Of a stretch of DNA of 47,403 nucleotides, positions 9,238-39,048 are shown in pieces. The notes beneath the pieces were generated by a model, which had not been told where the DNA came from, searched no databases, and was given only the letters and a program-made list of their open reading frames with translations. Positions within the stretch are counted from its first letter, which is position 1; each line of letters starts with the position of its first letter. The position numbers and the translations under genes were made by a program. The DNA is from Parcubacteria group bacterium (GTDB lineage Bacteria > Patescibacteriota > Minisyncoccia > Phycocordibacterales > Phycocordibacteraceae). The stretch lies in contig JAQBRG010000008.1 of NCBI GenBank assembly GCA_028286615.1, positions 1 to 47,403 on the forward strand, in the 5' to 3' direction.

Positions 9238-10443
9238 TTAAATCGAACCTGCGAGGTTGTAGATAGGGATGAGCACCGATGCGAGGAGTGTTCCGACGCC
9301 AAGACCGAGCAACACAATCATGATCGGTTCGATAAGATCGACAAGAGTATCAACAGCTGTGTTCACTTCGCGCTGATAGAACTTTGCAAGCGTAGTGAGA
9401 ATATTGCCGAGCTCTCCTGTTTCTTCACCCACGCGCACCATGGCACTCATGATGCCTGGAATCTCTGCGTGCTTTGAGAGTGCATCAGAAATACTAGAGC
9501 CTCCACGCACATCCTCCCCCACTGTCTTGAGTACGCCCGCATACGTGGCGCTTCCCACAACCGTGGCAGTAACTTCAACGGCTTCAACAACCGGCACGCC
9601 AGACACGAGCATAGTAGCGAAGTTGTCAGCAATACGAGAAAGGTAGAGCTTCTGGAAGAGATCTCCAATATACGGGAACTCGAGCTTCAACTTATCGAAG
9701 AAAAGACTTCCCGCAGGAGTCTTGGTCGCTCTGTAGGCAAAGATTGCTCCAACACCCATCGCGATAAGGAAGAGAAAGCCGTAATGCACAAGGAAGTCGG
9801 AAAGCGCGATAACAATACGAGTATAGATAGGTATCTGCTGTCCTGAGTCCTTGAGAATGCCGCTAATGCGCGGAATAACCATGGTAAGCATCAGACCCAT
9901 CACGATAAAGAAGACACCGATAACGAATGCAGGATAGATAAGTGCATTCTGTGCTTTTGTAACAACCGCGTACGTACGGTCGAGGTAGTCAGCAAGATAA
10001 CCGAAGGTCTCAGAAAGCTTTCCGGACTCCTCTCCTGAACGAACCATGTTCACGTAAAAGCTACTAAATATCTTAGGATGTCGTGCCATGGCCTTAGAGA
10101 TAGGACTTCCCCCCTGCAAGTCGTCTGCAACTTGGGTCAAAACCTCTGAAAGATATTTGTTATCAACCTCAGCGGCAAGAAGACGGAAGACACGGAGCGC
10201 AGACACCTGGGCTTCGAACAACGTAGCAATCTGACGCGAAAGAATAACCACCTCCTTGTTTGAGACGTGCTTGAAGAGACCGAGTTCAATTGAAAGCTTG
10301 GACTTCTGAATCGCTGGATCTATGGAAGAAACAATGAGATTGCGACGTTGCAGTGTTGAGACCGCCACGTCCATAGAAAGAGCCTCGATAGTTCCCTGTC
10401 GCTCGTGTCCGTCTTTATCAAGTGCGTGGTAACTAAATAGCAT
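9238..10443 (-). CDS. pilC: Type IV pilus platform protein (GspF/PilC family)
   Basis: 401 aa with two GspF-type repeats and three TM segments. It lies directly downstream of pilT. Confidence 0.9.
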   Translation of the reverse strand: MLFSYHALDKDGHERQGTIEALSMDVAVSTLQRRNLIVSSIDPAIQKSKLSIELGLFKHVSNKEVVILSRQIATLFEAQVSALRVFRLLAAEVDNKYLSEVLTQVADDLQGGSPISKAMARHPKIFSSFYVNMVRSGEESGKLSETFGYLADYLDRTYAVVTKAQNALIYPAFVIGVFFIVMGLMLTMVIPRISGILKDSGQQIPIYTRIVIALSDFLVHYGFLFLIAMGVGAIFAYRATKTPAGSLFFDKLKLEFPYIGDLFQKLYLSRIADNFATMLVSGVPVVEAVEVTATVVGSATYAGVLKTVGEDVRGGSSISDALSKHAEIPGIMSAMVRVGEETGELGNILTTLAKFYQREVNTAVDTLVDLIEPIMIVLLGLGVGTLLASVLIPIYNLAGSI

Positions 10444-10446
10444 AGA

Positions 10447-11505
10447 TTATAGATAGCGCTCGAAGGTCTTTGGGTCTGTTGCGCGCTCGTATGCGTGTTC
10501 GATAGTAACCTCGCCACGACGCACGAGTTCTGCGAGTGAGCGATCCATATCAATCATGCCGTCTTGAGAGCTGGTCTGAATAACGGTTGAGATCTCATGA
10601 GTGCGTCCTTCGCGAATAAGGTTCGCGATAGCGTTGTTGTTGATGAGAAGCTCGTAGGCTGGGATCTGCCCTCCCTGAATGCGAGGGACGAGGCGCTGCG
10701 AGAAGATACCAGCAAGCGATCCGGCAAGCTGCACGCGAACCTGTCCCTGCTGGTTAGGTGGGAACATGTCGATGATACGGTCGATAGTTTGAGCTGCGTT
10801 ATTGGTGTGGAGTGTTGAAAGAACCAGGTGTCCTGTTTCAGCCGCGGTAACCGCTGAAGAAATAGTTTCCTGGCTGCGCATCTCTCCAACCATGATCACG
10901 TTCACGTCCTCACGGAATGCTGAGTGAAGCGCTGCATGGAAGCTTGGCGTATCGATATGCACTTCGCGCTGGTGAATGAGGGACTTCTTCTGTTCAAAGA
11001 TGTACTCAATTGGGTCTTCGATAGTAACGATGTGTTCAGCGCGAGTTTCGTTGATGCGGTCGAGGATAGTCGCAAGCGTTGTCGACTTTCCCTGTCCAAC
11101 CGGACCCACAACCAAGAAGAATCCTTGGGTACGTTGCGTGAACACTTCGAGAATAGGAGGAAGGTTGAGGCTTTGGAACGTCTGGATCTCACGAGGAATA
11201 AGACGCATCGCGATAGTAGCAGCGCCTTGCACTATGTATCCGTTTACACGGAAGCGTGCGCCTCCTACGTGTGCATACGAGAAGTCTACGGTCTGGTCTC
11301 TATAAAAACCGTCCCAAAGATTCTTTGGTACGATGCTCTTCAAAAGCGTTTCGGTATCTTCAGGAGTTAGTACGGGGTGCTGTAAAAGCGGCACCATAGA
11401 ACCCGACACGCGGATAATTGGATGGGATCCAGCTGAAATATGGAGATCTGATCCTCCTTCAGCTATAACGGTATCGAGAAGTGGTTCTATGCGTACTGAG
11501 CTCAT
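10447..11505 (-). CDS. pilT: Type IV pilus retraction ATPase
   Basis: 352 aa. It has Walker A GPVGQGKST, an Asp box, Walker B (VIMVGEMR) and a His box (GHLVLSTLHT). Confidence 0.9.
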   Translation of the reverse strand: MSSVRIEPLLDTVIAEGGSDLHISAGSHPIIRVSGSMVPLLQHPVLTPEDTETLLKSIVPKNLWDGFYRDQTVDFSYAHVGGARFRVNGYIVQGAATIAMRLIPREIQTFQSLNLPPILEVFTQRTQGFFLVVGPVGQGKSTTLATILDRINETRAEHIVTIEDPIEYIFEQKKSLIHQREVHIDTPSFHAALHSAFREDVNVIMVGEMRSQETISSAVTAAETGHLVLSTLHTNNAAQTIDRIIDMFPPNQQGQVRVQLAGSLAGIFSQRLVPRIQGGQIPAYELLINNNAIANLIREGRTHEISTVIQTSSQDGMIDMDRSLAELVRRGEVTIEHAYERATDPKTFERYL

Positions 11506-11882
11506 GCTGGTTTTGTTTCAATAATGCGAATAGTTTCTGTGTACACCTCAGATGGGATGGCGGAGGCCTTGATGATGTAGCCTGCTGCTCCCAATTCTTT
11601 AGCTTTATCAATGTCTGAGTCCTGTCCCTGGTTTGAAAGCACAATAATCTTCGTAGTTGCAGCAAGTTTCTCCTTGCGGATAGCTTCCATAACTTCAAAA
11701 CCGTCCATAGCTGGCATAACAATGTCGACAAGGAGCGCATCTGGTGCTGGCTTTTCTCGAAGCGCTTTCAAAAGTTCGTCTCCCGTTGAGAAAGCAGTTA
11801 CCTCGTGGCCTGCGGCCCTGAACTTAACGGCGTACATGTCGAGCAAGAAACGGTCGTCATCTAGGAGATACAAGCGATACAT
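11502..11882 (-). CDS. Stand-alone CheY-like response regulator receiver
   Basis: 126 aa with an acidic pocket (LLDDD), phospho-acceptor context LLVDIVMPAMDG, and the conserved S (VLSN) and K (YIIKA). There is no output domain. Confidence 0.85.
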   Translation of the reverse strand: MYRLYLLDDDRFLLDMYAVKFRAAGHEVTAFSTGDELLKALREKPAPDALLVDIVMPAMDGFEVMEAIRKEKLAATTKIIVLSNQGQDSDIDKAKELGAAGYIIKASAIPSEVYTETIRIIETKPA

Positions 11883-11899
11883 AGTAGGTATAGATAAAC

Positions 11900-13669
11900 T
11901 TAGGATGGTTCTTTTTCCTCTTTCTCTGGTTCATCCTCGTCAGAGAAGAGCGTGCCGCCAAGGGTATTCACCTCTTCAAAGGGAATCTTCCCCGCAAGCG
12001 CCTTAATAATAGCATCCTCACGCACCGTAAACATACCTTTCGAGCGTGCGAGAGCGTAGACCTCCTCTTCAACAGGATGCGTAAGGACTATGTGCTCGAG
12101 TTCCTTATCCATCTTGAGTATTTCAAACACTGCCATACGTCCTCGCGTACCGCTTGGGCAGTCTGCAGTTGGCTTTGCGCGGTACAGATTCTTGAATTCA
12201 GGGATAGCACCCTTGGAATCTTCCGGTAGGTCGGAAAACTCCTTCTCCAAAAGGCCACGAATACTCTCTGAAATAGGCACCGCTTCCGCTGCCCCGTCAC
12301 ACATCTTACGAACAAGTCTTTGGCCGATAGCAGCAATAAGGGTTGGTGCAATCAAGAACGGGTCCACACCCATGTCTACAAGGCGCGGAATAACACCTGC
12401 AGCCGTATTAGTGTGGATTGTTGAGAATACGAGGTGTCCCGTAAGAGCAGCTTGCACGGCAAGCTGTGCGGTTTCTTTGTCGCGAATCTCTCCAACCATG
12501 ATGATGTCCGGGTCCTGGCGGAGAATAGAACGAAGACCGGCAGCGAATGTATATCCGATTTCAGCTTTAACCTGGGACTGTGCAACTCCAGGAATTTCAT
12601 ACTCAACCGGGTCTTCCACAGACACCACGTTCTGTGTCTCGCGGTTAAGTGCTGAAAGCATGGCAAACAATGTTGTTGATTTACCAGACCCTGTAGGGCC
12701 CGCAACAAGAATGATGCCGTATGGCCTGTCGAGCATTTCTTTAACATCAGCCAAGTCTTTCTCACGGAATCCAAGCTGTTCAAGTGTTGCAATAGACTTC
12801 GCGCGATCCAAGATACGCATAACTACCTTCTCCCCTTCTTGGGTTGGGAATGTAGAGACACGGAAGTCGATACGTCGGCCTTCAACGGTTGCTGAGAAGC
12901 GTCCGTCCTGCGGCTTTCGTTTCTCGTCGAGGCGAATCTGCGAAAGAATCTTGATACGTGCAACAACTGCCTGATGCACCTTCGAAGGAAGTTCGAGCGA
13001 TGTGTGCAAGTCGCCGTCCATACGGAAACGTACGCGCGTCTTCTCAGGCGTTGGTTCAATGTGAATGTCGGATGCGCCTCCTTCAACTGCATAGCGAAGT
13101 ATGGTCGCTACGATCTTGGTAACCGGTGCATCGGCTTTAATAACCTGCTCTTCAACAGATTGTGCAGGCGTACCTTTATTAGCCGCAGTTGCTTCAGCGG
13201 TAGCAACTCCTTCAAACTCAGAGAGCGCCTCACCCACTTCGTTTGAGAGGTCTTCGTACTCCTTAACGACATGATCAAAAGAGGTGCGGCTTATTATGAA
13301 AAGCTTGTACGGCATTCCCGCGCGTGAAGAGATGAACTGGAGCGCATCAAGCGCCTCAATATTATCTGGGTCGAGAATACCAACCTCAAGCGCTCCGTCC
13401 GTTACGGCAAGCGGCACAAACCCGTAGTGGCGGGCTGATTCTTCTGGAATATACTCAAGCGCCTTATGGTCTACCCCGTCCACAGCAACTACGCGAGAGG
13501 GTATGGAATAGGTATCACTTGCAGCAGCGAGTATCTTCTCTTCAGAAAGACCACGTTTCCCGAGTACGCCTTCAAGCGTTGCTCCGCTCACGCGAGCCTC
13601 TTCCTCAATAATAGGAATCTCTTCTGCTGTTATGAGCGAGCGTTCTTTAAGTAACGAGAGTATATTCAT
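11900..13669 (-). CDS. pilB: Type IV pilus assembly ATPase (GspE/PilB family)
   Basis: 589 aa. It has an N-terminal GSPII domain, Walker A GPTGSGKST, IMVGEIRD, GHLVFSTIHTN and a tetracysteine-like region. Confidence 0.9.
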   Translation of the reverse strand: MNILSLLKERSLITAEEIPIIEEEARVSGATLEGVLGKRGLSEEKILAAASDTYSIPSRVVAVDGVDHKALEYIPEESARHYGFVPLAVTDGALEVGILDPDNIEALDALQFISSRAGMPYKLFIISRTSFDHVVKEYEDLSNEVGEALSEFEGVATAEATAANKGTPAQSVEEQVIKADAPVTKIVATILRYAVEGGASDIHIEPTPEKTRVRFRMDGDLHTSLELPSKVHQAVVARIKILSQIRLDEKRKPQDGRFSATVEGRRIDFRVSTFPTQEGEKVVMRILDRAKSIATLEQLGFREKDLADVKEMLDRPYGIILVAGPTGSGKSTTLFAMLSALNRETQNVVSVEDPVEYEIPGVAQSQVKAEIGYTFAAGLRSILRQDPDIIMVGEIRDKETAQLAVQAALTGHLVFSTIHTNTAAGVIPRLVDMGVDPFLIAPTLIAAIGQRLVRKMCDGAAEAVPISESIRGLLEKEFSDLPEDSKGAIPEFKNLYRAKPTADCPSGTRGRMAVFEILKMDKELEHIVLTHPVEEEVYALARSKGMFTVREDAIIKALAGKIPFEEVNTLGGTLFSDEDEPEKEEKEPS

Positions 13670-13672
13670 GCG

Positions 13673-13981
13673 CTAGCGCGCCGAGGATGCCATTCCCGGG
13701 ATCGGCGCAAAGGGATCCCGGCGTCCAGATGCTTCAGGAATAATATTGGTGTGTATGTCTACAAGTGCTGCAAAGCGTGGGTCTGAGAATACGCTGGTAT
13801 CAAAAGCAACAGGATCAAGCTGGCTTGAAAGCGTGATGAACAGAGCTTCAGTACCGTTTGATGATCCTCCTATTTCAGATACTACTGGTTCTTCAGCGGG
13901 ACGCATCAAGAAAAAGGCAATGCCACCGCCAACAACGATGATTCCTGCAATGATACCGAGAGTTTTCTTGGAGATAGGCAT
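13673..13981 (-). CDS. Small single-pass membrane protein of the pilus operon (PilP-position)
   Basis: 102 aa with an N-terminal TM helix. It is separated from pilB by only 3 nt. Function is inferred from position only. Confidence 0.55.
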   Translation of the reverse strand: MPISKKTLGIIAGIIVVGGGIAFFLMRPAEEPVVSEIGGSSNGTEALFITLSSQLDPVAFDTSVFSDPRFAALVDIHTNIIPEASGRRDPFAPIPGMASSAR

Positions 13982-13987
13982 ATAAAT

Positions 13988-14596
13988 TTAGCGAAGCCAG
14001 TAGAGGCGGAAAGTTACGGTATAGGTATAGACTCCAGTTCCCTCTCCCTTAGCAACATCAATCGCAGCCACATCAAGAAGACGGAGGCTTCGTTCGACGG
14101 AATCAAGGAAGGTTCGGAAGGCGCTATAAGTACCGGTTGCCTTAACCGAGAGCTCAAGTGCTTCGGTAGGTCCTGATACCTGTACTGCAGAAGTTGCACC
14201 AACCGCGGTTGTCGCAGCAATCGGCGTAGCCGGAATTGAGGTAGGTGTCGCCGTTACAGTTGGTGCTGTTGGCTCATTCTTAATATCGAAATTTGAGAGC
14301 TGAAGACCTGAACGTGCAGCCAGACCCTGGAGATCAAGGATGAGCTGCACGTTATCCACGCCATCAGGAAGCATGGCTTGAAGACGAGTAAGCTTTTGAG
14401 GATCAAGCTTTGCTTTGTCTGCAGCAAGCTTAGCTTCTTTTTGTTTGAACTCGTCCGCTGCAGCTAGCGCACGCTTGTATCCAACGATTTCAGTCTTTAA
14501 GCCATCAATAGTAGTGGTGTACACAGGGTGTACGTACATGACGAGAATACCGATTGCCATGAGAATGAGTACGACTGGGAAAAGGCGGGAAATCAT
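13988..14596 (-). CDS. pilO: PilO-like pilus assembly protein
   Basis: 202 aa with an N-terminal TM helix, a coiled-coil segment (KRALAAADEFKQKEAKLAADKAKL) and a C-terminal ferredoxin-like part. It lies between the PilN-like and PilP-position genes. Confidence 0.65.
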   Translation of the reverse strand: MISRLFPVVLILMAIGILVMYVHPVYTTTIDGLKTEIVGYKRALAAADEFKQKEAKLAADKAKLDPQKLTRLQAMLPDGVDNVQLILDLQGLAARSGLQLSNFDIKNEPTAPTVTATPTSIPATPIAATTAVGATSAVQVSGPTEALELSVKATGTYSAFRTFLDSVERSLRLLDVAAIDVAKGEGTGVYTYTVTFRLYWLR

Positions 14597-14599
14597 AGG

Positions 14600-15322
14600 C
14601 TAGGGTGTTGAAGTTGCGGTTGGCATGGCATTTACTGGTGTCGTTGGGTTTGCCACCGGTGTTGTTGCAGTTGTCTTGGCTGCAGGCGTGGTGCTGGTAG
14701 GTGGTGGTGTTACAACGTTTGAAGTAGTAATTGGCGGAGTTACAAAGGAAGAAAGTATGACGAACTCAGGTGAAAGATCTGCCGTAAGAGAGAACGAGAC
14801 GCCTCCTCCCTTCTCAGTGCCTATATCTGAGAAGATGGCACGCTTTATACGCTTGTCCCCTGCAAAAGACGTGGACTGTGCAGCAAGAGCGTTAAACGTA
14901 GCAGCATGCCCTTCCATTCCAAGCGATGCTGAGTGGTCAGGATTAACTTCAAGCTTCAATGTTTCAAATCGTACGTTTTGAAGAGTGATACTTTCAAGTA
15001 CATTAAAGAATTGCGAAAGTCCTACGTGATTATCAAGCAACGTCTGTCCTGCGATAAATCTATTTCGAAGACGAATGAAATCTTCTACACTGCTACGATC
15101 GATATTCCTCTGAAGCGAATCAAGCTGTGCAACTTCTCCGTCACGCACATTCTCAAGATACTTCTGATACGCGAATGCTGCTGCAGCTGCCGCAAGGCTT
15201 ATGCCAAAAAGAACGACACCAATCAAGAGAAACACGTTGGTGCCTGAAGAAATACGCCGAGTCTGCGAGCTTACCGGCTGCTTAGGAACGAACGAGGTTG
15301 GAATAGTAGGAGGGAGAGCCAC
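14600..15322 (-). CDS. pilN: PilN-like pilus assembly protein with a Thr/Pro-rich tail
   Basis: 240 aa with a single TM helix after a short cytoplasmic N-terminus. It lies immediately downstream of pilM and has a T/P-rich C-terminus. Confidence 0.6.
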   Translation of the reverse strand: MALPPTIPTSFVPKQPVSSQTRRISSGTNVFLLIGVVLFGISLAAAAAAFAYQKYLENVRDGEVAQLDSLQRNIDRSSVEDFIRLRNRFIAGQTLLDNHVGLSQFFNVLESITLQNVRFETLKLEVNPDHSASLGMEGHAATFNALAAQSTSFAGDKRIKRAIFSDIGTEKGGGVSFSLTADLSPEFVILSSFVTPPITTSNVVTPPPTSTTPAAKTTATTPVANPTTPVNAMPTATSTP

Positions 15323-15374
15323 AATCGTAGTATACCGGTCAAAATGTTAGTTGCGAATGTTTATACACACTTCA

Positions 15375-16463
15375 CTAGTCTCCTTCTTCAAGTTTTCGAA
15401 GCGCGAGCCCAACCGCAACAGCAAACTCAGGGCCGATTTCCTGAAGAACAGGTCGCATGAAGGAAGGTGCTTCAACTTTTGCGAACGGGTCCGCAACTTG
15501 CACATCAATAGAGAAGAACGAGCGGGCGTATTCTCTTAATTGTTTTGTAACGCCTCCTCCGCCCGTAAGAATAAGTGCGGACACGGTCTTCTTATGCGCC
15601 ATTTCGTACTGAGAGATAGCGCGCTTCGTTTCTTCGAAGATGCGTGAGAAAACGAGTTCGATAGTTTGGCGCTCGTAACTATTGTCTGTGGCCGAACCGA
15701 AACCGAATGTTTTCTTTGAGACTTCTGCTTGAGAGAACGTATGGCCATGCGCGCTAGCAATAGAGCGCGTTACGTCCTGTCCTCCCTGAGGAATGTTGTG
15801 CGAGAGAGCAACTACGCCGTGCTCAACCACGTATACCTTTGATACTGAGGCACCGATATCAAGAACGACTACAGGCTTAACGGGTTCATTCACCACAGAA
15901 CGAATGGTGCTGAATATCTCAATCTCATAGAAGCTCGCCTCAAGCTGGCTTCCTGTTACAACGCTCTGAAGAAGAGTGAGCTCGTCATTCTGCACAGCAA
16001 CAAGGAGTACTTGGATCTTTTGTGGAGGCTCTGCTCCTTCTGGAAGCGGTTCAGGGATAATGAACCAGTCGAGCTGAATCTCTGACACCGGCACAGGGAT
16101 GTATTTGCGTGCCTCAAGTTCAATAATAGTCTTTTGCTGCGCAGGATCATCGCGACGTGGAAGCTCAACGAGTGTAAGAAGTGATCGTGAGAACGGAATG
16201 GAGATACCGCTTTCTTTGGTAGTTATATTTGCTTCATGAAGAAGGTCACGCAATGTCTCAGCAATTTTATCTGCTGGTAGGTTTGTTGCCTGTCCTACTT
16301 CCCCTCCGGTGTAAGGAGCAAGAGCAAGTTCGCCGTACGTCTCAAGCACTGCACCACCACCCTGGCGGCGTAGCTGTACAACTTTAAGAGACGAGGAGCC
16401 TATGTCCACGCCCACAACACTCGCTGATTTTTTCTTCGTAAACAGCGAATCAAGGAAACTCAT
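15375..16463 (-). CDS. pilM: PilM, actin-like ATPase of the type IV pilus alignment complex
   Basis: 362 aa with VGVDIGSSSLKVVQL and VLDIGASVSKV phosphate motifs of the actin/HSP70 fold. It is the first gene of the operon. Confidence 0.85.
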   Translation of the reverse strand: MSFLDSLFTKKKSASVVGVDIGSSSLKVVQLRRQGGGAVLETYGELALAPYTGGEVGQATNLPADKIAETLRDLLHEANITTKESGISIPFSRSLLTLVELPRRDDPAQQKTIIELEARKYIPVPVSEIQLDWFIIPEPLPEGAEPPQKIQVLLVAVQNDELTLLQSVVTGSQLEASFYEIEIFSTIRSVVNEPVKPVVVLDIGASVSKVYVVEHGVVALSHNIPQGGQDVTRSIASAHGHTFSQAEVSKKTFGFGSATDNSYERQTIELVFSRIFEETKRAISQYEMAHKKTVSALILTGGGGVTKQLREYARSFFSIDVQVADPFAKVEAPSFMRPVLQEIGPEFAVAVGLALRKLEEGD

Positions 16464-29960: not shown

Positions 29961-29961
29961 G

Positions 29962-30035
29962 TGCGCCCATCAGGACTCGAACCTGAAACCGCTTAGGTAT
30001 AAGCTAAGTGCTCTAACCAATTGAGCTATAGGCGC
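29962..30035 (-). tRNA. tRNA-Ile (anticodon UAU)
   Basis: The reverse complement folds as GCGCCTA-TA-GCTC-AATTGGTTA-GAGC-A-CTTAG-CTTATAC-CTAAG-CGGTT-TCAGG-TTCGAGT-CCTGA-TGGGCGC-A. The anticodon loop C-T-TAT-A-C gives UAU. Confidence 0.85.
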
Positions 30036-30522: not shown

Positions 30523-32469
30523 TTAGATTGCTACTTCCTCCTCTTCTTCCTTAGACTTCGGTGTTATGCCGTTAGCGATAAGAATCTTTTCAAACTCTTC
30601 GCGCTCAAGCGTCTCAACCTCAACCAATCTCTTGGTTATAGCGTTAAGTGCTCCACGATGCGTACTGAGTACTTCTCGTGCCTTAACCTTTCCTTCCTCG
30701 ATGATACGCGTAACTTCGGCATCTATCTTTGCTGCAATTTCCTGAGAGTAGGTTTCGTTGCGGTAGCTATGATCGGTAGCAAAAGCTACTGGACCAACCA
30801 CGTCGCTCATACCGTAACGAGAGACCATGTCGCGTGCGAGTGCTGTTATAACCGCAAGATCGTTAGAAGGACCGGTGGTGATGTCGCCATATACCATCTC
30901 TTCTGCAACGAATCCCCCGAGCGTTGCTGCGATGTCATCAAGGAAGCTCTTTCTTGATTGCATCTTCTTGTCGTCAAACGGAAGTTTGAGCGTGTATCCA
31001 GCTGCACGTCCTCGGCTAATGATAGAGATCTTGTGAACTGGGTCTGCGTGCTCAAGGACTGAAGACACAAGTGCGTGTCCTGCTTCGTGGTACGCAGTAA
31101 GTTCCTTCTCTCTCTTGCCGAGCAAGTGACTCTTGCGTTCCGGACCGAGCATAACCTTTTCAATAGAACGGATGAGATCGTACTGGGTAATCTCTTTGCG
31201 TTCTTCGCGAGCAGCAAGAATAGCTGCTTCGTTCATAAGCGAGTAGAGTTCGGCACCTGAGAATCCAGGAGTACGCTCTGCAATAACATCAAAGTTAATA
31301 TCGGGACCAAATGGCTTCTTACGCGCATGCACAGAAAGAATCTCGAGACGGTCTTTGCGATCTGGGAGATCAATCGTTACGCGGCGGTCAAAGCGTCCTG
31401 GGCGAAGAAGCGCCGGATCAAGAACATCAGGACGGTTTGTAGCGGCCATAACAATAACCTTCTCTGTTGGATCGAATCCGTCCATCTCAACAAGAATCTG
31501 GTTAAGGGTCTGTTCACGTTCGTCATTCCCTCCTCCGATACCCGTACCGCGTACGCGTCCAACCGCATCAATTTCGTCCACGAAGATAATAGAAGGTGCT
31601 GTGCGCTTAGCCATATTAAAGAGGTCTCGTACGCGTGAAGCTCCCACACCCACGAACATCTCAACGAATTCAGAACCTGAGATGGAGAAGAACGGTACGC
31701 CAGCCTCTCCCGCAACGGCACGAGCGAGCAACGTCTTTCCTGTACCTGGTGCACCCATAAGAAGAATGCCTTTAGGGATACGCGCTCCTATATCAAGGAA
31801 CTTCTTCGGGTTCTTGAGGAAGTCCACAATCTCGAGGAGTTCTTCTTTTGCCTCCTTGGCACCAGCGACGTCAGCAAATGTAACGCGCTGCGCAGTGTCT
31901 GATGGATCAATCATGCGTGCCTTGCTCTGTCCGAATGAAAGCGCCTGCATGCCTGCCCCCTTAACCTGACGCGTGAGGAACCAGAACAATCCTGCGAGCA
32001 AGATAATAGGAAGAATGATTGGAGCAAGACTAAGGAACCAGAATTTAAATCCTGATTCGTTTGCAATGGTGGTTGAGACAACAGAAAGCTGTTCAGGAGT
32101 AACGCCATACGCCGCGAGAGTCTCTGGAAGTCCTGCATCAGGATCTTTCATGGCGGTCTTCTCAATGCCGTCGTTGTACTTAAGCTCAAGCTGGTTGCCT
32201 GAGATCTTTATTGAATTCACGAGCCCTGCCTTAACATCTCCTGCAACCTGAGAGAGGGCTATCTCATCCCTCTTAGTTCCGGGTCCAACGAATGTGCTGT
32301 AGAGAGAAACTATAAGAAGGAGCACCAAAATGGTTGAAAGAATGTTTCCAGCGAATCCTGGAGTACCCGGTGTGAGGAAACGGCCCGGACCATTTTTCTT
32401 TCCCTTTCCTTTCTGAGGCGGGGTTGGCTTCTTGGGAGGCTTTATAGCAGGTTTTTTAGTAGGTGACAT
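30523..32469 (-). CDS. ftsH: ATP-dependent zinc metalloprotease FtsH
   Basis: AAA+ Walker A GAPGTGKT, Walker B IIFVDEID, the second region of homology, and zinc motif HEAGHA. I prefer the ATG at 32469 (MSPTKKP). Confidence 0.95.
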
Positions 32470-32549
32470 ATGTATAAGAACTATACAATAGAGCGTGAAG
32501 GAAGGCGAAAGAAGAAGCATTTCTAGACCAAACCTGCTACCCTCATACC

Positions 32550-32990
32550 ATGAGTCTTATAGAGAACAAGAAGGCGCATCTGCGCTTTGAGGTGCTCGAA
32601 ACCTATCAAGCAGGTCTCGAACTTTCAGGCGCAGAAGCAAAAGCAATCCGTCAGAAGCACGGGAAGCTTGATGGTGCCCGCGTGTTGGTACGCGGCGGAG
32701 AGGCATACATTATAGGTATGTCTGTTCCTCCCTATCAGGTTGCGAATACTCCTGCAGGATATGAGCCTGCTCGTCCTCGCAAACTTCTTCTTAAGAAGAA
32801 AGAAATAGCTGAATTGCTTGAGGCTGAGGCGAAGAAAGGGTTGACAGTTGTGCCTTTAGAGGTATATAGTAGTGGGAGATACCTCAAGATTCGCGTTGCG
32901 ATTGTTCGTGGAAAGAACAAAGAAGACAAACGCGAAGACATGAAAAAGAAAGACGCGCAGCGTGAAGCATCGCGTCTTTTGAAACGCTAG
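32550..32990 (+). CDS. smpB: SsrA-binding protein
   Basis: 146 aa with IENKKAHLRFEVLETYQAGLELSGAEAKAIR and a basic C-terminal tail. It lies directly upstream of the tmRNA. Confidence 0.93.
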   Translation: MSLIENKKAHLRFEVLETYQAGLELSGAEAKAIRQKHGKLDGARVLVRGGEAYIIGMSVPPYQVANTPAGYEPARPRKLLLKKKEIAELLEAEAKKGLTVVPLEVYSSGRYLKIRVAIVRGKNKEDKREDMKKKDAQREASRLLKR

Positions 32991-33038: not shown

Positions 33039-33447
33039 GGGGGTGACCGGCTTTGACGGTCTGTACTTTGAGAGACGTGCGACGCAGTGGAAGGTTGTTG
33101 ACCACTTAAATCTCGCAACCACAAATACTTGCAAACAAAACTGCAAGCGTGTCTCCTTACTTTACTGCTAAGGATTTCACGTTCGCTTACGCGTAAGGGT
33201 TGAGCCTCGGCTCCTCTTCGCCTAAGCGACGTCTCTTTTTCTAGGTTCTCGTAGCTAGGAACTGAGGCGGAATTCTCTACGAGATCGGTATCGAGGGTTT
33301 CCCAGCTCTCGGCTTAAAAGATGGGATTAGGCAGGAACGTTTTCGCTCGAGTTCCTATGTTTCTGCTGAACCTACAACACGAGCTATGCGTCGTAGATTC
33401 GCTCTTAAAGCCAGATTCGGACCGGAGTTCAACTCTCCGCACCTCCA
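33039..33447 (+). ncRNA. ssrA: tmRNA (ssrA)
   Basis: The 5' GGGGGTGACCGGCTTTGACGG pairs with the 3' CACCTCC, including a G3-U wobble. The T arm is CGGAG-TTCAACT-CTCCG. The candidate tag ORF at 33131-33196 is GCA AAC AAA ... GCG TAA, giving ANKTASVSPYFTAKDFTFAYA. CCA is not encoded. Confidence 0.85.
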
Positions 33448-33458
33448 CATGGTTTCAT

Positions 33459-33484
33459 TAAAAGGCCCTAACGGGCCTTTTAAT
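33459..33484 (+). terminator. Intrinsic terminator after ssrA
   Basis: AAAGGCCC-TAAC-GGGCCTTT hairpin followed by a T-rich tail. Confidence 0.7.
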
Positions 33485-33567
33485 ATATACACGTCTTTAT
33501 CGTTGGGAGGTTCTACTATTCTGCAGCCATCTATCATAGAGCCCTTATTTCCCACCACCTCTCCTGC

Positions 33568-34893
33568 TCACATTGAAGGCTTGCTTTGATTTAACTTTGC
33601 AACCAAAAGCGTCAGTACGTTGTGAACAGAAGTTGATGTCATGCTTCTTGTAGTCTCGGTCCGCTGTACATACCCCCTATGGGCGTAATTGTTTCTGAGT
33701 TTGTACAAATCATCAAACCAAGGCTTTAACTCAGGCTTCAGTACATTGATAGCTCCAATAATGTATTTGGTCATGTCTTTGGTAATCCCTTTCGGAACAA
33801 ATAGATGTTCTAGACAACAATAAATTTGAAGGATTTTTGCACCTAAGTCTGGAATCTGTGTAGCGGAACTTAATATATCCAAAGTTGGAGCAATATCGCT
33901 AATACATGGACTAGTCCATGGATTTTTCAGATGCTCAAAAATCACTTTCGATTCGTTAAAAACCTTTTCAACCCCGCCTAAGTTTCTTCCATCTAAAAAC
34001 ATTGGGACAATACCTCGATACCCAAAGGACAGAAACAAGACGCCATCAGGAATCTTTTCCCAGGGTTTCTTTTCGTCCTCCTCCCAACTGTAGCCACCTC
34101 CCATAGCCTCAGGTCTCAGCATATACGGTGAGGAAGGTGCCATGATTTGAACTTTACCGGTTCCAAAATCTACTTGAGCTGGATACAAAAAAGCTGCAAC
34201 TCTTAAGACATTCAGGAAGGCGCGTAGTCGAGCTGTCCCGACAAAATACACGTACGTCCAACTTCCTTCGGTTTCGTAGCTAAAAGCTAAAGGACAATGT
34301 CGAATCGAGTCTGCTCCGGCTCCTGGATATAAATCTGTAAAAGTTTTATTGAACTTCGCATGACGTTTTTCTTGATCAAAATCCACGTATGCTCTGTAGG
34401 ACGGATCAAATTTTCCAAAGAACCCATCGAAAAACTCAGACCGAGTCTTTTCTGTTTCAAAATCTCTCAAGTCACTAATCTCCACGACTAGTGCACGCTT
34501 TATTATTGATCCCTCAAGGGCCAGTAAGTGTTTTTCAATTATGTCTTCGATCTTTTCACTCTTTTCACTCCAACTGAAAACAAAAGCACGTTCTGCAAAT
34601 AGGTCTGATCCACCAGCTCTCTGCGCAAATTCATGATCTGTCTGACAAGCCTTTAAAAGCTTCGCCTTAAAACAAATAGTGACGATATCTAGCGGTGCTA
34701 TCTTAAGATCTTTTTCTTCGAATTCCTGAAATAAACTTAGGAGCTCAGTCAGCAAGGCCCTTCTTTGGTAATACTTTTCTTTCCCCCACTTATCAAGTAA
34801 TGGCATTTGCATCGCAAGTGCTACTTCCGTCTCGGCAACGGCTTCAAGTCTTATAAAGGTTTCCTCACCAACTGAATTTCTAATCGCTGACAT
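33568..34893 (-). CDS. Large hypothetical protein with a C-terminal HEPN-type RNxxAH motif (candidate RNase/abortive-infection effector)
   Basis: 441 aa. The C-terminal helical region is CCLEHLF...WFDDLYKLRNNYAHRGY, with the Rx4H at 33679-33696. I recognise no motif in the N-terminal ~330 aa. Confidence 0.7.
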   Translation of the reverse strand: MSAIRNSVGEETFIRLEAVAETEVALAMQMPLLDKWGKEKYYQRRALLTELLSLFQEFEEKDLKIAPLDIVTICFKAKLLKACQTDHEFAQRAGGSDLFAERAFVFSWSEKSEKIEDIIEKHLLALEGSIIKRALVVEISDLRDFETEKTRSEFFDGFFGKFDPSYRAYVDFDQEKRHAKFNKTFTDLYPGAGADSIRHCPLAFSYETEGSWTYVYFVGTARLRAFLNVLRVAAFLYPAQVDFGTGKVQIMAPSSPYMLRPEAMGGGYSWEEDEKKPWEKIPDGVLFLSFGYRGIVPMFLDGRNLGGVEKVFNESKVIFEHLKNPWTSPCISDIAPTLDILSSATQIPDLGAKILQIYCCLEHLFVPKGITKDMTKYIIGAINVLKPELKPWFDDLYKLRNNYAHRGYVQRTETTRSMTSTSVHNVLTLLVAKLNQSKPSM

Positions 34894-34894
34894 T

Positions 34895-35431
34895 TTATTC
34901 GAAATTCGTTTTCACTCTTACTTTCTCTGTCATTTCGTTAACGCTGATATACCCAAGCGCATCCACATCAGGGTTATAGAGCTCAATCATATCGAGATCG
35001 TCACGCGGGAAAATTCGTGCGCCAGGAATGGCTTCTCCCTGCTGGAGTGATTCTTTCGTCTTCTTATAGCGCTCCGGCTCCATAACGAAATCTATATCAC
35101 CTGCCTGCGCGCGATAGATGTCTGGCTGACGAATGTAGAGATGGGTGTAGGTGGCTTCCGGTATATCCCCTTCTGCTGGAATGACGATAGGTTCGTGAAG
35201 ACGGAAATACTTCTGATTTTCGTTATCGGACTCTTCCGTGAGTTGCTTGCGCAGTTCAGTCAGGAATTTGTATTCCTCATCGTAGTGACAGAAAAAGCCG
35301 ACATTCCCTGCTATAGGTAGGTATTCATCAAGAGAGGCGTTGCAGAGCTTGAAGCACTCGATATGGATATGTCGAATGGCTTCGAGTAGGTCTGCATGGG
35401 TCGTGACAGGACTGAAACGGTATAGCTTCAT
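34895..35431 (-). CDS. Hypothetical protein, translationally coupled partner of the HEPN-motif gene
   Basis: Its stop TAA is 1 nt before the ATG of the downstream gene. I prefer the ATG at 35431 (MKLYRFSPV). No recognisable domain. Confidence 0.6.
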   Translation of the reverse strand: MKLYRFSPVTTHADLLEAIRHIHIECFKLCNASLDEYLPIAGNVGFFCHYDEEYKFLTELRKQLTEESDNENQKYFRLHEPIVIPAEGDIPEATYTHLYIRQPDIYRAQAGDIDFVMEPERYKKTKESLQQGEAIPGARIFPRDDLDMIELYNPDVDALGYISVNEMTEKVRVKTNFE

Positions 35432-35498
35432 GGCCCTAAGTATATGCCTATTTTCTATATGCTCTAGGCCCGCAACGTAGGTGCTACCATGTGAGGAA

Positions 35499-36092
35499 AT
35501 GAAAGAAGCAATAGGAGTCATCGGGGTGATTCTCACGTTCGTCGCCTACATTCCCTATTACCGAGACATCATCTCTGGTAAGACTCGACCTCATGTATAC
35601 AGCTGGTCGTTGTGGAGTTTGCTTACGATTCTGATTGTTGCTCTACAGATACAGGGAGGTGCTGGTCCGGCTACGTGGGTAACAGCGGCAGCAGGACTTT
35701 TGTGCGTAGGTGTAGTCTTTCTAAGCTTAAGGAATGGCAAGAAGGACATAACGAAGTCCGACACAGCTGTCGCTATTCTTTCCTTACTTGCGATTGTTTT
35801 CTGGCTTTTCATTCATCAACCAGAAATCTCGCTTACACTAGTGATAGTTGCTGACTTGCTCGCCTTCATACCAACTGTGCGTAAATCGTATATTGATCCT
35901 TACTCCGAGACCTTATCGCTTTACATAACTAATGCGCTTCGTTTTGGGCTGACCTTGCTCGCAGTTGAGCACTATACGTACCTCTCATCTGCATGGGTTA
36001 TTGCTTGGGCGGTAGGTAATGCATTGCTCTCTCTGCTCCTTATCGCACGCAGAATGAAGCTTCGAAAAGGAGGTTCTAATCTAGCGTCCTAG
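35499..36092 (+). CDS. Polytopic membrane protein (about 6 TM)
   Basis: Hydrophobic throughout. ATG 35499 is preceded by GAGGA. It is divergent from the two-gene module. Its last codons contain a GGTTCTAATCTAG motif copy. Confidence 0.6.
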   Translation: MKEAIGVIGVILTFVAYIPYYRDIISGKTRPHVYSWSLWSLLTILIVALQIQGGAGPATWVTAAAGLLCVGVVFLSLRNGKKDITKSDTAVAILSLLAIVFWLFIHQPEISLTLVIVADLLAFIPTVRKSYIDPYSETLSLYITNALRFGLTLLAVEHYTYLSSAWVIAWAVGNALLSLLLIARRMKLRKGGSNLAS

Positions 36093-36149
36093 TTCTGAGT
36101 ACCCCGTAGGTACGTATTGGCTTTCGTGTACTCATGGTGATACCCAGTC

Positions 36150-36295
36150 ATCAACCACTCGTAGGAAATATGAGGAGCCGTTTAGCATCAGCGAAGTTCT
36201 AACCTGGAATAACCAATTCCACAACTATACTCATTTTGAGTACACTCACTATGCTTAGAAAGCCGCCCATGAGGCGGCTTTCAATGTTAGAATCT
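36150..36295 (+). repeat. Cassette-boundary repeat, copy C (37-nt conserved module plus GC hairpin)
   Basis: The module at 36187-36223 is ATCAGCGAAGTTCTAACCTGGAATAACCAATTCCACA. The hairpin is GAAAGCCGCC-CATGA-GGCGGCTTTC (36258-36282), and GTTAGAATCTCTACAT follows at the end. Confidence 0.7.
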
Positions 36296-36299
36296 CTAC

Positions 36300-36602
36300 A
36301 TGTTTGAAGTTGCTGCAATACTACTGATCCCAACAGTTATTCTCTCGTTCATTATTCTGGGATTATTCCGTTTACTTACAAAGGTAATCCGTATTAATCG
36401 CTTTGGGACATCCATCTTTGGAGCGATAGTATTTCGTCTCTGTGAATTGGCCATTTATATAGGCGGAATGACATATATAACAAACATCTACGCCTACGGC
36501 GGAAAAATGACCTTTTCGGCGATACTTGCAATAGTATTTGCTGTTTATTATGCGATTTATTTAGGCATTGACCTATTGATCCATAGAAAGAGACTGTCCT
36601 AG
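36300..36602 (+). CDS. Small membrane protein (3 TM)
   Basis: 100-aa hydrophobic ORF bounded by repeat copies C and D. Confidence 0.5.
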   Translation: MFEVAAILLIPTVILSFIILGLFRLLTKVIRINRFGTSIFGAIVFRLCELAIYIGGMTYITNIYAYGGKMTFSAILAIVFAVYYAIYLGIDLLIHRKRLS

Positions 36603-36619
36603 GCTTTCCAAGAATCAAT

Positions 36620-36735
36620 AATTCGTGGGAAGTGTGTGGAACTGCTTTGTATCAGCGAGGTTCTTATATCGGATAACAACCTCCACGCATAAGGAAAATG
36701 AGAGAACCTCCCAAGGGGCGGCTCTCTCATTTCTT
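36620..36735 (+). repeat. Cassette-boundary repeat, copy D
   Basis: The module at 36651-36687 is ATCAGCGAGGTTCTTATATCGGATAACAACCTCCACG. It is followed by the hairpin AAATGAGAGA...TCTCTCATTT (about 36696-36732) and a T-rich tail. Confidence 0.7.
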
Positions 36736-36809
36736 AAAATTACTCTACGCCGGCTGCCAAAGCTCAATAGGATTTCCTTCTGGCTGGATTGAGTAGCCCG
36801 AGTTAGATA

Positions 36810-37175
36810 TTATTTAAAATATGCTCCTGTAAGAATTACAGGCAATATAAATACTATGACAGAAAGGAAGTATGGCCCAAAGAGCAGAGCTCCTGTCACC
36901 ATCGCTATGATTCCCAGGGCTCTTGCGAGTTGATAGCCGAGAGACCCCTTTGTACCTTTTACATGAGACTTGGATAACCTTCTATAGAAATAAATAGTAA
37001 CCAGAAATGCGAATACCATTCCTCCCAATACAAATCCGTTTGGGTCGTAATTACCCATACTTTTAACAGCTGGGTAAAAAAGAGAGATGGTTATTATTGC
37101 TGCTACTGAAGTAATTATCTGGTCTTTATGACTAGGAACTTTTGTTGAGAGCGGTGACGTATTTTGAGTTTCCAT
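36810..37175 (-). CDS. Small membrane protein (about 3 TM)
   Basis: 121-aa hydrophobic ORF bounded by repeat copies D and E. Confidence 0.5.
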   Translation of the reverse strand: METQNTSPLSTKVPSHKDQIITSVAAIITISLFYPAVKSMGNYDPNGFVLGGMVFAFLVTIYFYRRLSKSHVKGTKGSLGYQLARALGIIAMVTGALLFGPYFLSVIVFILPVILTGAYFK

Positions 37176-37254
37176 GTCCCAAGCATAACAATGTAGACAC
37201 GGAAGTAAATCACTTGTCCGCTGACACCAAAAGAAGCCAGCTTAGACTTTCCAC

Positions 37255-37400
37255 GAGTCCACGACCCATAAGAACTGTGAGAAACTTTTCAGAATTAGTG
37301 AGGTTCTAACGTCAGATAACCACCTCCACCGATATAGAACCACACGGAAACACGTGGGACATTAGAAAACCGCCTCTACGGGCGGTTTTCTAATCTACAT
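37255..37400 (+). repeat. Cassette-boundary repeat, copy E
   Basis: The module at 37294-37330 is ATTAGTGAGGTTCTAACGTCAGATAACCACCTCCACC. A perfect 13-bp hairpin TTAGAAAACCGCC-TCTACG-GGCGGTTTTCTAA (37362-37393) follows, and the element ends in TTTCTAATCTACAT. Confidence 0.7.
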
Positions 37401-37931: not shown

Positions 37932-38054
37932 GTAGACAAACTATATCAAGGTTCTAATCGCATGCACCCCCCTCTATAGAAATATATAGAGCAATGGGTC
38001 GCCCTAATCAGGCGACCCATTGTCAGCAAAACTCGGCAGAGATTCTTACAAGAA

Positions 38055-38492
38055 TTACTTTTCTGCCAATTCTTTAATCTTTTCAAGAGCTTTGGGCCAG
38101 GCTTCATTAAACATACCAGCATACTCATCAGGAAGGTGGAGCAAGTCTATGGATACCTCAGTGCCTCCATCCTTGTCTTGCAGGGTGTAGTTCTCAAAAC
38201 CACTGCTCTCCATAGGCACCTCGATTCCATTCCGCATTTCAGCGTGATGCTCCAAGGAAATGAATTCTTGCGAGCGATTCTCTTTAACGAGGGCCACCAT
38301 ACCGCCCTCCTTCTCGCCTTCCGCGGCTGGACCGAGGAAAAGCATCTTCGAGCCTTCGCTCCAATCACCCTGATAGTAGGACCCTGGCATGAATACCGAG
38401 GTCCATTCACGATACGTCGCATCATCAAGCAGCACATCCCATACTTTCTCGCGAGGAGCATTAATTTGTTTTGAGTAATGAAGATCTGTCAT
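38055..38492 (-). CDS. SRPBCC/Aha1-like (START-fold) domain protein
   Basis: 145 aa. INAPREKVWDVLLDDATYREWTSVF and the C-terminal WPKALEKIKELAE are typical of the AHSA1/SRPBCC family. Confidence 0.7.
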   Translation of the reverse strand: MTDLHYSKQINAPREKVWDVLLDDATYREWTSVFMPGSYYQGDWSEGSKMLFLGPAAEGEKEGGMVALVKENRSQEFISLEHHAEMRNGIEVPMESSGFENYTLQDKDGGTEVSIDLLHLPDEYAGMFNEAWPKALEKIKELAEK

Positions 38493-38944: not shown

Positions 38945-39048
38945 TGATTTAGTGGCGTTTATTGTGAGTTAATTTTAACTCACAGAAGGCAACAAAAGGT
39001 TCTAATCTACTTTCTCAAAATCCCGCGGGGTCTTTGGGCTCACCCGAA

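Follow-up and report, generated by a model that had tools for sequence, protein, structure and literature searches.

Lambda-type attP sites are those of tyrosine integrases. CPR bacteria, which have tiny genomes, contain few recognised mobile elements. Islands that integrate into tRNA and tmRNA genes have been described by the sublocations they use (Williams 2002) and in Islander (PMC4383910). The closest known case to the locus considered here is that of the tandem ssrA islands of Dehalococcoides (McMurdie et al. 2011, PMC3146451), where several islands lie in tandem directly 3' of a single tmRNA gene and carry ssrA-end repeats. The repeat is 20 bp long, the crossover lies in the T-loop, and a conserved 15-bp motif upstream of the repeat cannot be aligned with ssrA; many of these islands have a CcrB-like serine recombinase next to attL, while some lack integration genes and were proposed to be cis-mobilizable by accretion, and their cargo is strain-specific (PMC3146451). 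The tycheposon-built islands of Prochlorococcus form arrays split by ~40-nt partial tRNA copies, and autonomous integrase-bearing members are known (bioRxiv 10.1101/2020.12.28.424599).

The window analysed here, that is the whole stretch of 47,403 nt, comes from an uncultivated member of the Paceibacterota (CPR) and contains three copies of a repeat downstream of its tmRNA gene. These copies are probably the right-end att arms of three integrase-less cassettes stacked at the 3' end of ssrA. The region 33449-37329 appears to consist of three such cassettes, Z, Y and X, of 2.8, 0.46 and 0.64 kb, because the copies end at the tmRNA-terminal ...TCCAC, the native trailer follows copy 3, and P'1, the left end of cassette Z, follows modules elsewhere. 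The features are given below; E values are those of a window-free HMM, made from metagenome copies elsewhere only.

33039-33448, plus strand: intact tmRNA gene ssrA (ARAGORN; Rfam RF00023, 107 bits, full length, positions 1-374/374)
33440-33448, plus strand: shared core, or attL, the last 9 nt of ssrA, CACCTCCAC, read from the sequence
33449-36222: putative cassette Z
33449-33516, plus strand: P'1 arm, left end of cassette Z, with ATGGTTTCATT, the bidirectional terminator AAAAGGCCC-TAAC-GGGCCTTTT (33460-33481) and GGAGGTTCTAC
33509-33516, plus strand: +61 motif within the P'1 arm, its offset conserved
33568-34893, minus strand: cassette Z cargo, 441-aa ORF
34895-35536, minus strand: cassette Z cargo, 213-aa ORF
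35481-36092, plus strand: cassette Z cargo, 203-aa membrane-like ORF
36069-36222, plus strand: copy 1, full-length module, right-end arm of cassette Z (E 3e-49; aligned with 12 metagenome copies); landmarks GGTTCTAA at 36072 (-150), AGTTCTAA at 36195 (-27) and core ...CCAATTCCAC ending at 36222
36223-36686: putative cassette Y
36223-36299, plus strand: left end of cassette Y, a small hairpin, then terminator TTAGAAAGCCGCC-CATGA-GGCGGCTTTC (about 36255-36285; MFE -24.1, z -5.4)
36300-36602, plus strand: cassette Y cargo, 100-aa hydrophobic ORF
36608-36686, plus strand: copy 2, short diverged module, right end of cassette Y (E 3.5e-14, model positions 83-161); landmarks GGTTCTTA at 36659 and core AACCTCCAC ending at 36686
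36687-37329: putative cassette X
36687-36735, plus strand: left end of cassette X, terminator hairpin AAATGAGAGAACCTCCC / GGGCGGCTCTCTCATTT (36696-36732), an inverted repeat 88% complementary
36810-37175, minus strand: cassette X cargo, 121-aa membrane-like ORF
37253-37329, plus strand: copy 3, short diverged module that closes cassette X on the right and, as attR, the entire insertion (E 1e-11); landmarks GGTTCTAA at 37302 and core CACCTCCAC at 37321-37329, which has the same sequence as the end of the tmRNA and forms a direct repeat with 33440-33448
37330-37393, plus strand: displaced native tmRNA trailer, with CGATATAGAACC, a small hairpin (37340-37357) and the native terminator TTAGAAAACCGCC...GGCGGTTTTCTAA (37362-37393)

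The repeats themselves are real. The three copies align without gaps, with 24 of 37 positions invariant and 29 of 37 matching between copies 2 and 3, exactly as counted in the first-pass annotation; among 200,000 random 37-mer pairs drawn from the window, 3 reached at least 24 matches. A repeat search of the window returned them as a 73-nt family with 68-71% identity, and the window-free HMM matched exactly three places in the window, namely copies 1, 2 and 3. Moreover, profile searches located 13 more loci outside the window, spread over several metagenomes and one genome, all belonging to the same lineage. The extent of ~110-145 nt given for the element had to be corrected: copy 1 represents the full length of ~154 nt, and copies 2 and 3 are diverged 3' parts, of ~80 nt, of the copy-1 type. 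Aligned with the metagenome copies, the ~155-nt module has a mean column identity of 78%, and it contains stop codons in all six frames. In every copy the similarity stops exactly at ...TCCAC, and the 3' flanks are mutually unrelated. The window sequence was matched in DNA runs only, from a soil metagenome.

The comparison with relatives located the junctions. ARAGORN detected the tag peptide of the tmRNA, and other contigs from the same soil sample diverge exactly after 33449, where the inserted left end has brought a new tmRNA terminator (33460-33481). The trailer 3' of copy 3 (37330-37393) is colinear with the sequence directly 3' of the tmRNA genes in L004, L079 and L026; a composite empty site scored 157 in the alignment with L004, compared with 94 for the actual junction. 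Empty tmRNA ends, with no insertion, were present in relatives L002, L004 and L079, and the native neighbour of the tmRNA gene in relatives is AHSA1. The sequence 3' of the window tmRNA (ATGGTTTCATTAAAAGGCCC..., P'1) was also found 3' of module cores in L098 (2868), L091 (1499) and L101 (12492, 14803), the flank 3' of the L003 tmRNA resembles the flanks 3' of the L085 and L100 modules, and cassette Y has a left end with homology to what stands 3' of the L095 and L094 modules. L101 contains a second array, in which the tmRNA gene is followed by three module-bounded cassettes. Taken together, these comparisons demonstrate the junction logic: attL, attR and attP-like junctions exist, and relatives have empty sites. 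The folding results given below demonstrate the absence of RNA structure. A joint between 33465 and 37320 in one contig is not interpretable, since one of its sides matches over no more than 21 letters.

Repeats of the 3' end of the target gene mark the distal boundaries: CACCTCCAC at 37321-37329, ACCTCCAC ending at 36686 and TCCAC ending at 36222. The long-module core CCAATTCCAC shares TCCAC alone with the end of this tmRNA, GCACCTCCAC, which is short for an overlap region. The module's 3' part had been equated with the tmRNA acceptor end, and in copy 3, where CCACCTCCAC agrees in 9 of 10 bases, this holds; however, only the last 5-9 nt of the modules are tmRNA-derived. The same limit applies to the suggestion of degenerate att repeats left by serial integrations into ssrA: the comparative junctions support the att repeats and the serial integrations, but the copies are not degenerate copies of ssrA. 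The remaining ~80-150 nt of the module are apparently element-derived arm sequence and not a degenerate tmRNA 3' end.

In the reading that we favour, successive site-specific insertions would have occurred at the very 3' end of ssrA, so that the newest cassette adjoins the gene. Each cassette would comprise a left end, consisting of a replacement tmRNA trailer and an intrinsic terminator, then cargo, and a right end formed by module and core. The native trailer and terminator would have been moved 3.9 kb downstream, to their present position 3' of copy 3, and the integrase-less cassettes may be kept and moved as cis-mobilizable units by accretion. The module (P arm, ~155 bp), the core and P' (at least 45 bp) would together form an attP of lambda-like size. 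Almost every long copy has the motif GGTTCTAA, with one mismatch at most, at both -150 and -27, and four flanks of the P'1 type have it at +60/+61 (that of the window tmRNA, two of the three in L101, and that in L003); these repeats would be putative arm-type protein-binding sites. Of the six close P'1 copies, three (L098, L091 and L101 module 1) lack the +61 motif, so its role in the P' arm is probably weak. Counting against the attP reading, the module is more conserved than a typical P arm needs to be, and the P' flanks are highly diverse, whereas a classical attP has conserved sites on both arms. A small hairpin between GTTCTAAC and the core was considered as a conserved stem and rejected: palindromes are present, but their register differs between copies.

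None of the ORFs in the window contained a Phage_integrase, Resolvase, Recombinase or transposase domain, and no recombinase was found beside any module copy (~17 loci). Therefore, we infer that the enzyme acts in trans and is encoded elsewhere, a heterobivalent tyrosine integrase being the best fit. The 441-aa ORF, which adjoins attL, was examined as a hidden integrase and rejected, as it has no domain match and its family is widespread; in other CPR genomes it forms part of the cargo of tRNA-His or tRNA-Gln islands, which encode a large serine recombinase of their own. Pattern scans of IMG/VR for a phage or plasmid helper, with the 3' part of the module, its centre and P'1, gave chance matches or nothing.

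The locus resembles the Dehalococcoides islands in the tandem arrangement 3' of the tmRNA gene, the extra conserved upstream motif and the members without integration genes. In contrast to them, the core measures 5-9 bp and lies at the extreme 3' end, the arm is 80-155 bp long, the cassettes are as small as 0.46 kb, and a recombinase is missing at all of the loci inspected. With lambda-type islands it shares the restoration of the target gene by the element, the displacement of the native flank to the far end and an attP-like module-core-P' junction of ~200-240 bp; the motif repeated at fixed arm positions may correspond to their arm-type sites. It differs from them in that no integrase or excisionase gene adjoins either junction, the P' arms are heterogeneous and the identity segment is very short. 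Like CIMEs and tycheposon islands, it has integrase-less segments between functional-looking att sites, and new arrivals at a single tRNA or tmRNA gene displace the earlier elements inward, so that a flexible island grows within a genome that is small and streamlined; unlike in both, no autonomous member was found here, and the repeat is mostly non-tmRNA sequence.

A more far-reaching explanation, which we regard as possible but rather unlikely, is that ssrA is the entry site of an integron-like platform and the ~155-bp module its cassette-borne site, with a trans-acting, possibly unusual recombinase shuffling single-gene, terminator-carrying cassettes; the module-opening GGTTCTAA may be a second point of exchange. 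The layout of the locus itself resembles that of integron arrays: entry is at a fixed place, here the 3' end of the tmRNA gene, every small cassette has a single recombination site, and the most recent cassette lies closest to the entry. In contrast to integrons, there is no IntI and no folded attC, it is the sequence of the site and not its structure that is conserved, each cassette has its own terminator, and cargo occurs in both orientations. If the explanation were true, it would mean a dedicated gene-capture system in ultra-small CPR genomes. One Logan contig joins 33515 to 36087, and thus lacks the cargo of cassette Z, on both sides of which stands the 10-bp direct repeat GGAGGTTCTA; repeat and contig bear on the possible second exchange point. 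Neither an excision nor a circular junction was seen in the assembled Logan contigs.

The modules could also be passive or regulatory boundaries (an outward promoter or insulator for mostly minus-strand cargo) and homology anchors, so that RecA-dependent swapping between the tmRNA gene, P'1 flanks and modules after natural transformation would need no dedicated recombinase, and ...TCCAC would be a historical scar; we find this doubtful. It would fit the failure to find a recombinase anywhere searched, the GGAGGTTCTA repeat around the Z cargo with the one contig that lacks it, and the type IV pilus cluster within the window. Modules (~155 nt) and P'1 (45-85 nt) are, moreover, repeated within arrays (L101), which permits homologous exchange, and for 14 of 21 copies the gene immediately 5' of the module is encoded by the minus strand. 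However, this 14:7 orientation bias is not significant, and no sigma-70-like promoter was detected by scanning either strand of the modules. The base-precise junction between tmRNA and flank is reused with many unrelated flanks, for which homologous recombination offers no explanation.

The headline of the first-pass annotation was a structured element with SD/anti-SD-like pairing, and a small-RNA family was among the identities it suggested. As a rival explanation, a small or cis-regulatory RNA formed by module and terminator hairpin, whose transcripts would start near GGTTCTAAT and end at the hairpins, is very improbable. An intrinsic terminator does stand 3' of each copy, and single-sequence folds of module plus hairpin reach z of -3.5 to -4.5, but the signal comes from the terminator. 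The modules themselves are unstructured (z about 0), and their last 70 nt fold like shuffled sequences. No conserved fold was found on either strand over 13-22 copies by RNAalifold, SCI and column shuffles: the SCI was 0.17 for the plus and 0.08 for the minus strand, and the RNAalifold consensus, at -6.5 kcal/mol, had 1 compensatory pair of 15. The proposed helix between GA(G/A)GTT and A(A/C)(C/T)TC, said to contain a compensatory change, did not survive, as across 22 copies none of its pairs changed on both sides, one pair was unpaired in 14 of the 22, and its measures equalled those of shuffles (299/500 and 290/500). Rfam, searched at gathering and E-value thresholds, returned only weak terminator-driven matches (P9, RNAI). 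Copies 2 and 3, additionally, have no downstream plus-strand gene to regulate. The strong hairpins noted 3' of each copy were confirmed, the 70 nt downstream having z of -5.4, -2.4 and -6.4 relative to shuffles, and hairpins (z -2 to -11.5) stand 3' of 19 of the 22 junctions. They are, however, not a variable part of the element, as had been supposed, but intrinsic, mostly bidirectional terminators that belong to the left end of the next cassette or to the native tmRNA trailer and not to the module, and the stretch between module and hairpin is conserved neither in length nor in sequence. On these folding results, the module is not a structured RNA. Because the hairpins are ordinary transcription terminators, the locus probably represents a genomic island of an established type, here in a new lineage, and annotation of the modules as a novel RNA family is not warranted.

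An integron-like attC, likewise suggested at first, or another site folded as a single strand, such as the subterminal hairpins of the IS200/IS605 type, would agree with a cassette array that has one conserved site per cassette, with the position of this site wholly on one side of the crossover, and with cargo made up of small diverse genes. We give it very little credence, since neither strand forms an imperfect palindrome or a conserved fold and Rfam has no match; sequence is conserved and not structure, the reverse of what is seen in attC; the boundary reads ...TCCAC and not GTTRRRY; the ORFs lie in both orientations; and the window has no intI, HUH or TnpA gene.

That the copies are decayed tmRNA 3' fragments, pseudo-ssrA ends displaced by islands with a crossover far inside the gene, is barely credible: the terminal 8-9 nt of copies 2 and 3 equal the tmRNA end and there are loose by-eye similarities (TCGTAG, GAGTTC-AAC), but apart from this terminal core, local Smith-Waterman scores against the final 120 nt of the tmRNA do not exceed those of dinucleotide shuffles (equalled or surpassed by 303, 230 and 111 of 1000), which leaves the T-arm resemblance unconfirmed as well, nhmmer module profiles never match a tmRNA gene, the Rfam tmRNA and tRNA models have no match in the modules, and the modules share derived sequence across genomes, which is not expected from independent decay.

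For the stacked cassettes of the preferred reading, ...TCCAC together with the module provides a precise marker that delimits the flexible island 3' of ssrA in Paceibacterota MAGs. Integrase-less, terminator-equipped mini-cassettes at the tmRNA gene would be one concrete route of accessory-gene gain and loss in CPR, and, if the trans-acting recombinase were found, the enzyme and its ~240-bp site could serve as a site-specific tool in organisms not yet genetically tractable. The cargo ORFs of cassette Z (33568-36092) have no Pfam, NCBIfam or PADLOC match and include no recombinase; the 100-aa ORF of cassette Y is also called as a gene on a Logan contig. The kinds of cargo seen are membrane proteins, a possible defence pair, methyltransferases and sortase/ice-binding genes. 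The sortase/ice-binding cassette of L101 is preceded by a cassette different from that in L091.

The 47-kb window belongs to the genome of a Paceibacterota/Parcubacteria (CPR) bacterium, and the closest relatives of its SmpB are found in Parcubacteria and Paceibacterota MAGs (65–75% identity). The three repeats lie 2.7–3.9 kb 3′ of the tmRNA gene (ssrA), in a region with a G+C content of 0.42–0.47 versus about 0.50, and no family assignment was obtained for the small ORFs of this region. The features are as follows, with E-values from a profile built solely from copies found elsewhere:

30523–32520, minus strand, FtsH
32550–32990, plus strand, SmpB
33039–33448, plus strand, intact tmRNA gene
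33440–33516, putative attL (tmRNA end, core and P′1 flank)
33449–36222, cassette Z, 2.8 kb, three ORFs
36069–36222, copy 1 (E 3e-49), putative internal junction
36223–36686, cassette Y, 464 bp, one 100-aa ORF
36608–36686, copy 2 (E 3.5e-14), putative internal junction
36687–37329, cassette X, 643 bp, one 121-aa ORF
37253–37329, copy 3 (E 1e-11), putative attR with the native trailer that follows
38055–38492, AHSA1-like gene, the usual 3′ neighbour of the tmRNA gene in the relatives compared

A tRNA-Ile gene (anticodon UAU, 29961–30035, minus strand) is conserved in this lineage beside the FtsH–SmpB–tmRNA block, also in the comparison loci L003, L004, L079, L002 and L101.

Aligned without gaps, the three 37-mers are invariant at 24/37 positions, and copies 2 and 3 agree at 29/37, exactly as counted in the first-pass annotation. 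A repeat search of the window extended the family to 73 nt (68–71% identity) and placed the three hairpins in a second repeat family. A degenerate pattern for the 3′ part of the module returned 18 metagenome loci, 13 of them true homologues by profile search, and further copies were found in the genome locus L004 and in L101, a contig of 20 kb from a close relative. The window-free profile matched exactly three places in the 47 kb, and the coordinates of these matches identify copy 1 as the full element of about 154 nt, and copies 2 and 3 as diverged versions of its 3′ part, each about 80 nt long. The mean column identity of the 13 long copies (alignment A3) was 78%. In every copy the similarity is sharply bounded, on the left by (A/G)GGTTCTAATCT and on the right by ...CCAMYTCCAC, while the sequence 3′ of the right edge varies and nearly always opens with a terminator hairpin. 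The module contains stop codons in all frames of both strands, and is thus non-coding. Partial copies exist as well, as a 38-nt piece of the 5′ part (GGTTCTAAT...CCGTAGGCAC.GATTGG) lies at 248–285 of locus L091, and a full module follows 70 nt downstream. Across all loci, 14/21 copies have a minus-strand gene as their direct 5′ neighbour, and the start codon of this neighbour is often no more than 40 nt away from the module; this bias is not significant, and might hint at an outward-facing regulatory role.

Modules and tmRNA genes have flanking sequences in common. Copy 3 is followed by CGATATAGAACC, a small hairpin and TTAGAAAACCGCC...GGCGGTTTTCTAA, and the same sequence stands directly 3′ of the tmRNA genes in L004, L079 and L026, which identifies this flank, from sequence comparison, as the native tmRNA trailer. 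When the window tmRNA end was joined to 37330–37400, it was colinear with the L004 tmRNA and its trailer, with a score of 157 versus 94 for the real junction. Conversely, the P′1 flank that follows the window tmRNA, ATGGTTTCATTAAAAGGCCCTAACGGGCCTTTT, was found behind module cores (the short tmRNA 3′-end sequence closing each module) in L098, L091 and, twice, L101, and the flank after the L003 tmRNA resembles those after the L085 and L100 modules. Such sharing of flanks is the reciprocal pattern that would be expected of site-specific recombination between the tmRNA 3′ end (attB) and module–core–P′ (attP, P′ being the flank after the core); the window would thus hold attL, two internal junctions and attR. 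The insertion (33449–37329) has the direct repeat CACCTCCAC at both bounds, and relatives L002 and L004 have uninterrupted tmRNA-end sites. Together with the reciprocal junctions and the attR trailer, these sites bear out the first of three identities proposed earlier, att repeats from serial integrations into ssrA, but the repeats are integration sites and not degenerate ssrA copies, as only their last few bases come from ssrA. The three-cassette insertion represents tandem integrative cassettes at ssrA, a known kind of arrangement.

Each hairpin consists of an A-tract, a GC stem and a T-tract, and is an intrinsic, mostly bidirectional terminator. The earlier observation that the hairpin after each copy keeps its structure while its sequence differs was correct; however, the hairpin is not a part of the module but lies at the left edge of the following cassette or within the native trailer. 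A cassette landing beside ssrA would have to terminate the tmRNA transcript, which would explain why structure is kept though sequence differs, and the same hairpin could also end a convergent cargo gene. The stem of the native trailer hairpin is CCAC..GTGG in the window (37340–37357) and CTAT..ATAG in L004 (7088–7105), with pairing retained. This hairpin, which has the conserved GATATAGAAC 5′ of it, may act as a signal for processing or for recombinase binding.

Cassette content varies between genomes. L101 carries a second array, in which the tmRNA is followed by three module-bounded cassettes with a 439-aa gene and Ldh_2, a sortase and an ice-binding-like gene, and a methyltransferase. The sortase/ice-binding cassette stands behind a different cassette in L091 than in L101, which indicates cassette-by-cassette shuffling. 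In the soil sample with the window, other contigs diverge exactly after 33449, and one Logan contig joins 33515 to 36087, and therefore is without the cassette Z cargo. This 2.57-kb cargo is bracketed by a 10-bp direct repeat, GGAGGTTCTA (33506–33515 and 36069–36078), and this repeat and the cargo-less contig point to a possible second site of exchange, at the motif with which each module opens.

Module (about 155 bp), core and P′ (45–85 bp) are together comparable in size to a lambda-type attP. With one mismatch allowed, almost every long copy had the octamer GGTTCTAA at two fixed offsets, −150 and −27. The octamer was also found at +60/+61 in four P′1-type flanks (that of the window tmRNA, the diverged one of L003 and 2/3 P′1 flanks in L101), and inverted at +5 in the native trailer; it was missing from the P′1 flanks of L098, L091 and L101 module 1. 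Such a pattern would be expected of arm-type or accessory binding sites. Exact copies in the window all lie within 36–39 kb, save one at 19588, inside an ORF. Solitary GGTTCTAAT motifs occur outside the modules at 37950–37958 and 38998–39006 (plus strand), flanking the AHSA1-like and DUF1801 genes. Each is upstream of a minus-strand start codon, at a distance of 17 nt in one case and about 52 nt in the other.

No recombinase domain was detected in any window ORF or beside modules in about 17 loci; therefore, the cassettes are non-autonomous, and would be mobilized in trans, or through accretion with some unsampled autonomous element. IMG/VR scans revealed no phage carrying the site. The 441-aa gene beside attL was rejected as the recombinase and is cargo; its family is widespread, has no known domains and is found as cargo elsewhere. 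The pair that it forms with a 213-aa gene (33568–35536, minus strand) had no Pfam, NCBIfam or PADLOC match. The 441-aa family (>200 matches, 42–77% identity) extends over Patescibacteria, Verrucomicrobia, Peregrinibacteria and a Pacearchaeota-labelled MAG, and in other CPR genomes its members are cargo within islands at tRNA-His or tRNA-Gln, which encode a large serine recombinase of their own, and stand next to defence-like neighbours, SduA_C (Shedu) or KAP NTPase. The 441-aa gene may be an undescribed defence gene.

In a minority alternative, the modules would now be mainly homology anchors or regulatory boundaries, with exchange by homologous recombination after DNA uptake. In its favour, the window encodes a type IV pilus/type II secretion-like cluster (6030–16463, minus strand; several prepilins with N_methyl motifs, prepilin peptidase A24, T2SSF, two T2SSE ATPases, PilM, PilO and a response regulator), which may have a role in DNA uptake. 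The reciprocal flanks are the pattern expected of site-specific integration, which we prefer.

For tandem integration at ssrA, the closest described system is that of Dehalococcoides, whose tandem ssrA-specific islands have ssrA-end direct repeats and, upstream of the repeat, a further conserved motif with no alignment to ssrA; some of these islands have no integration module and have been proposed to be cis-mobilizable (PMC3146451). In contrast to these, the crossover here is at the extreme 3′ end with only 5–9 shared bases, the arm is much longer (80–155 bp) and sequence-conserved, the cassettes are as small as 0.46 kb, and no autonomous member was found among the loci examined. The same logic applies to the tycheposon-built islands of Prochlorococcus and to tDNA islands generally (Islander). 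The layout is also like that of an integron, but tests for the features that define one, attC and IntI, were negative here. There is a modest chance that the arrays are a dedicated cassette-capture platform in CPR bacteria.

The repeats had been described accurately at first pass, but their interpretation as a structured RNA was wrong. RNAalifold on the 13 long copies gave a consensus of only −6.5 kcal/mol with compensatory pairs at 1/15, and the structure conservation index was 0.17 (plus strand) and 0.08 (minus strand). In the proposed GARGT/AMYTC helix (22 copies), no pair changed on both sides, one pair was unpaired in 14/22 copies, and pairing equalled that of shuffled partners (299/500 and 290/500); the apparent G–C to A–T compensation in copy 1 reflects two sites that vary independently. 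Folding of the final 70 nt of each module was no better than that of shuffles (z −2.3 to +0.9), whereas the 70 nt 3′ of them formed strong hairpins at 19/22 junctions (z −2 to −11.5), and Rfam returned nothing for the modules but weak terminator-driven matches. Taken together, these results argue strongly against a structured RNA.

A degenerate tmRNA end was likewise rejected: 303, 230 and 111 of 1000 dinucleotide shuffles scored at least as high as the respective copies against the last 120 nt of tmRNA, the best alignments of copies 2 and 3 covered just the terminal ACCTCCAC or CACCTCCAC, module profiles matched no tmRNA gene, and the suggested T-arm resemblance is thereby unsupported.

Many Paceibacterota have an inverted tmRNA 3′-end copy (GTGGAG(G/A)TG...) directly after the tmRNA terminator (L022, L027, L028, L029, L034, L040, L092; L101, 9663–9887, reverse strand). 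A GC hairpin interrupts this copy, and a T-loop-like GGGGGAATCGA or GAGTTGAAAGG comes after it. In L101 the copy lies within a 225-nt insert with GCACCTCCAC direct repeats on both sides, for which Rfam gave only a weak match to permuted tmRNA (18.5 bits, E 0.16).
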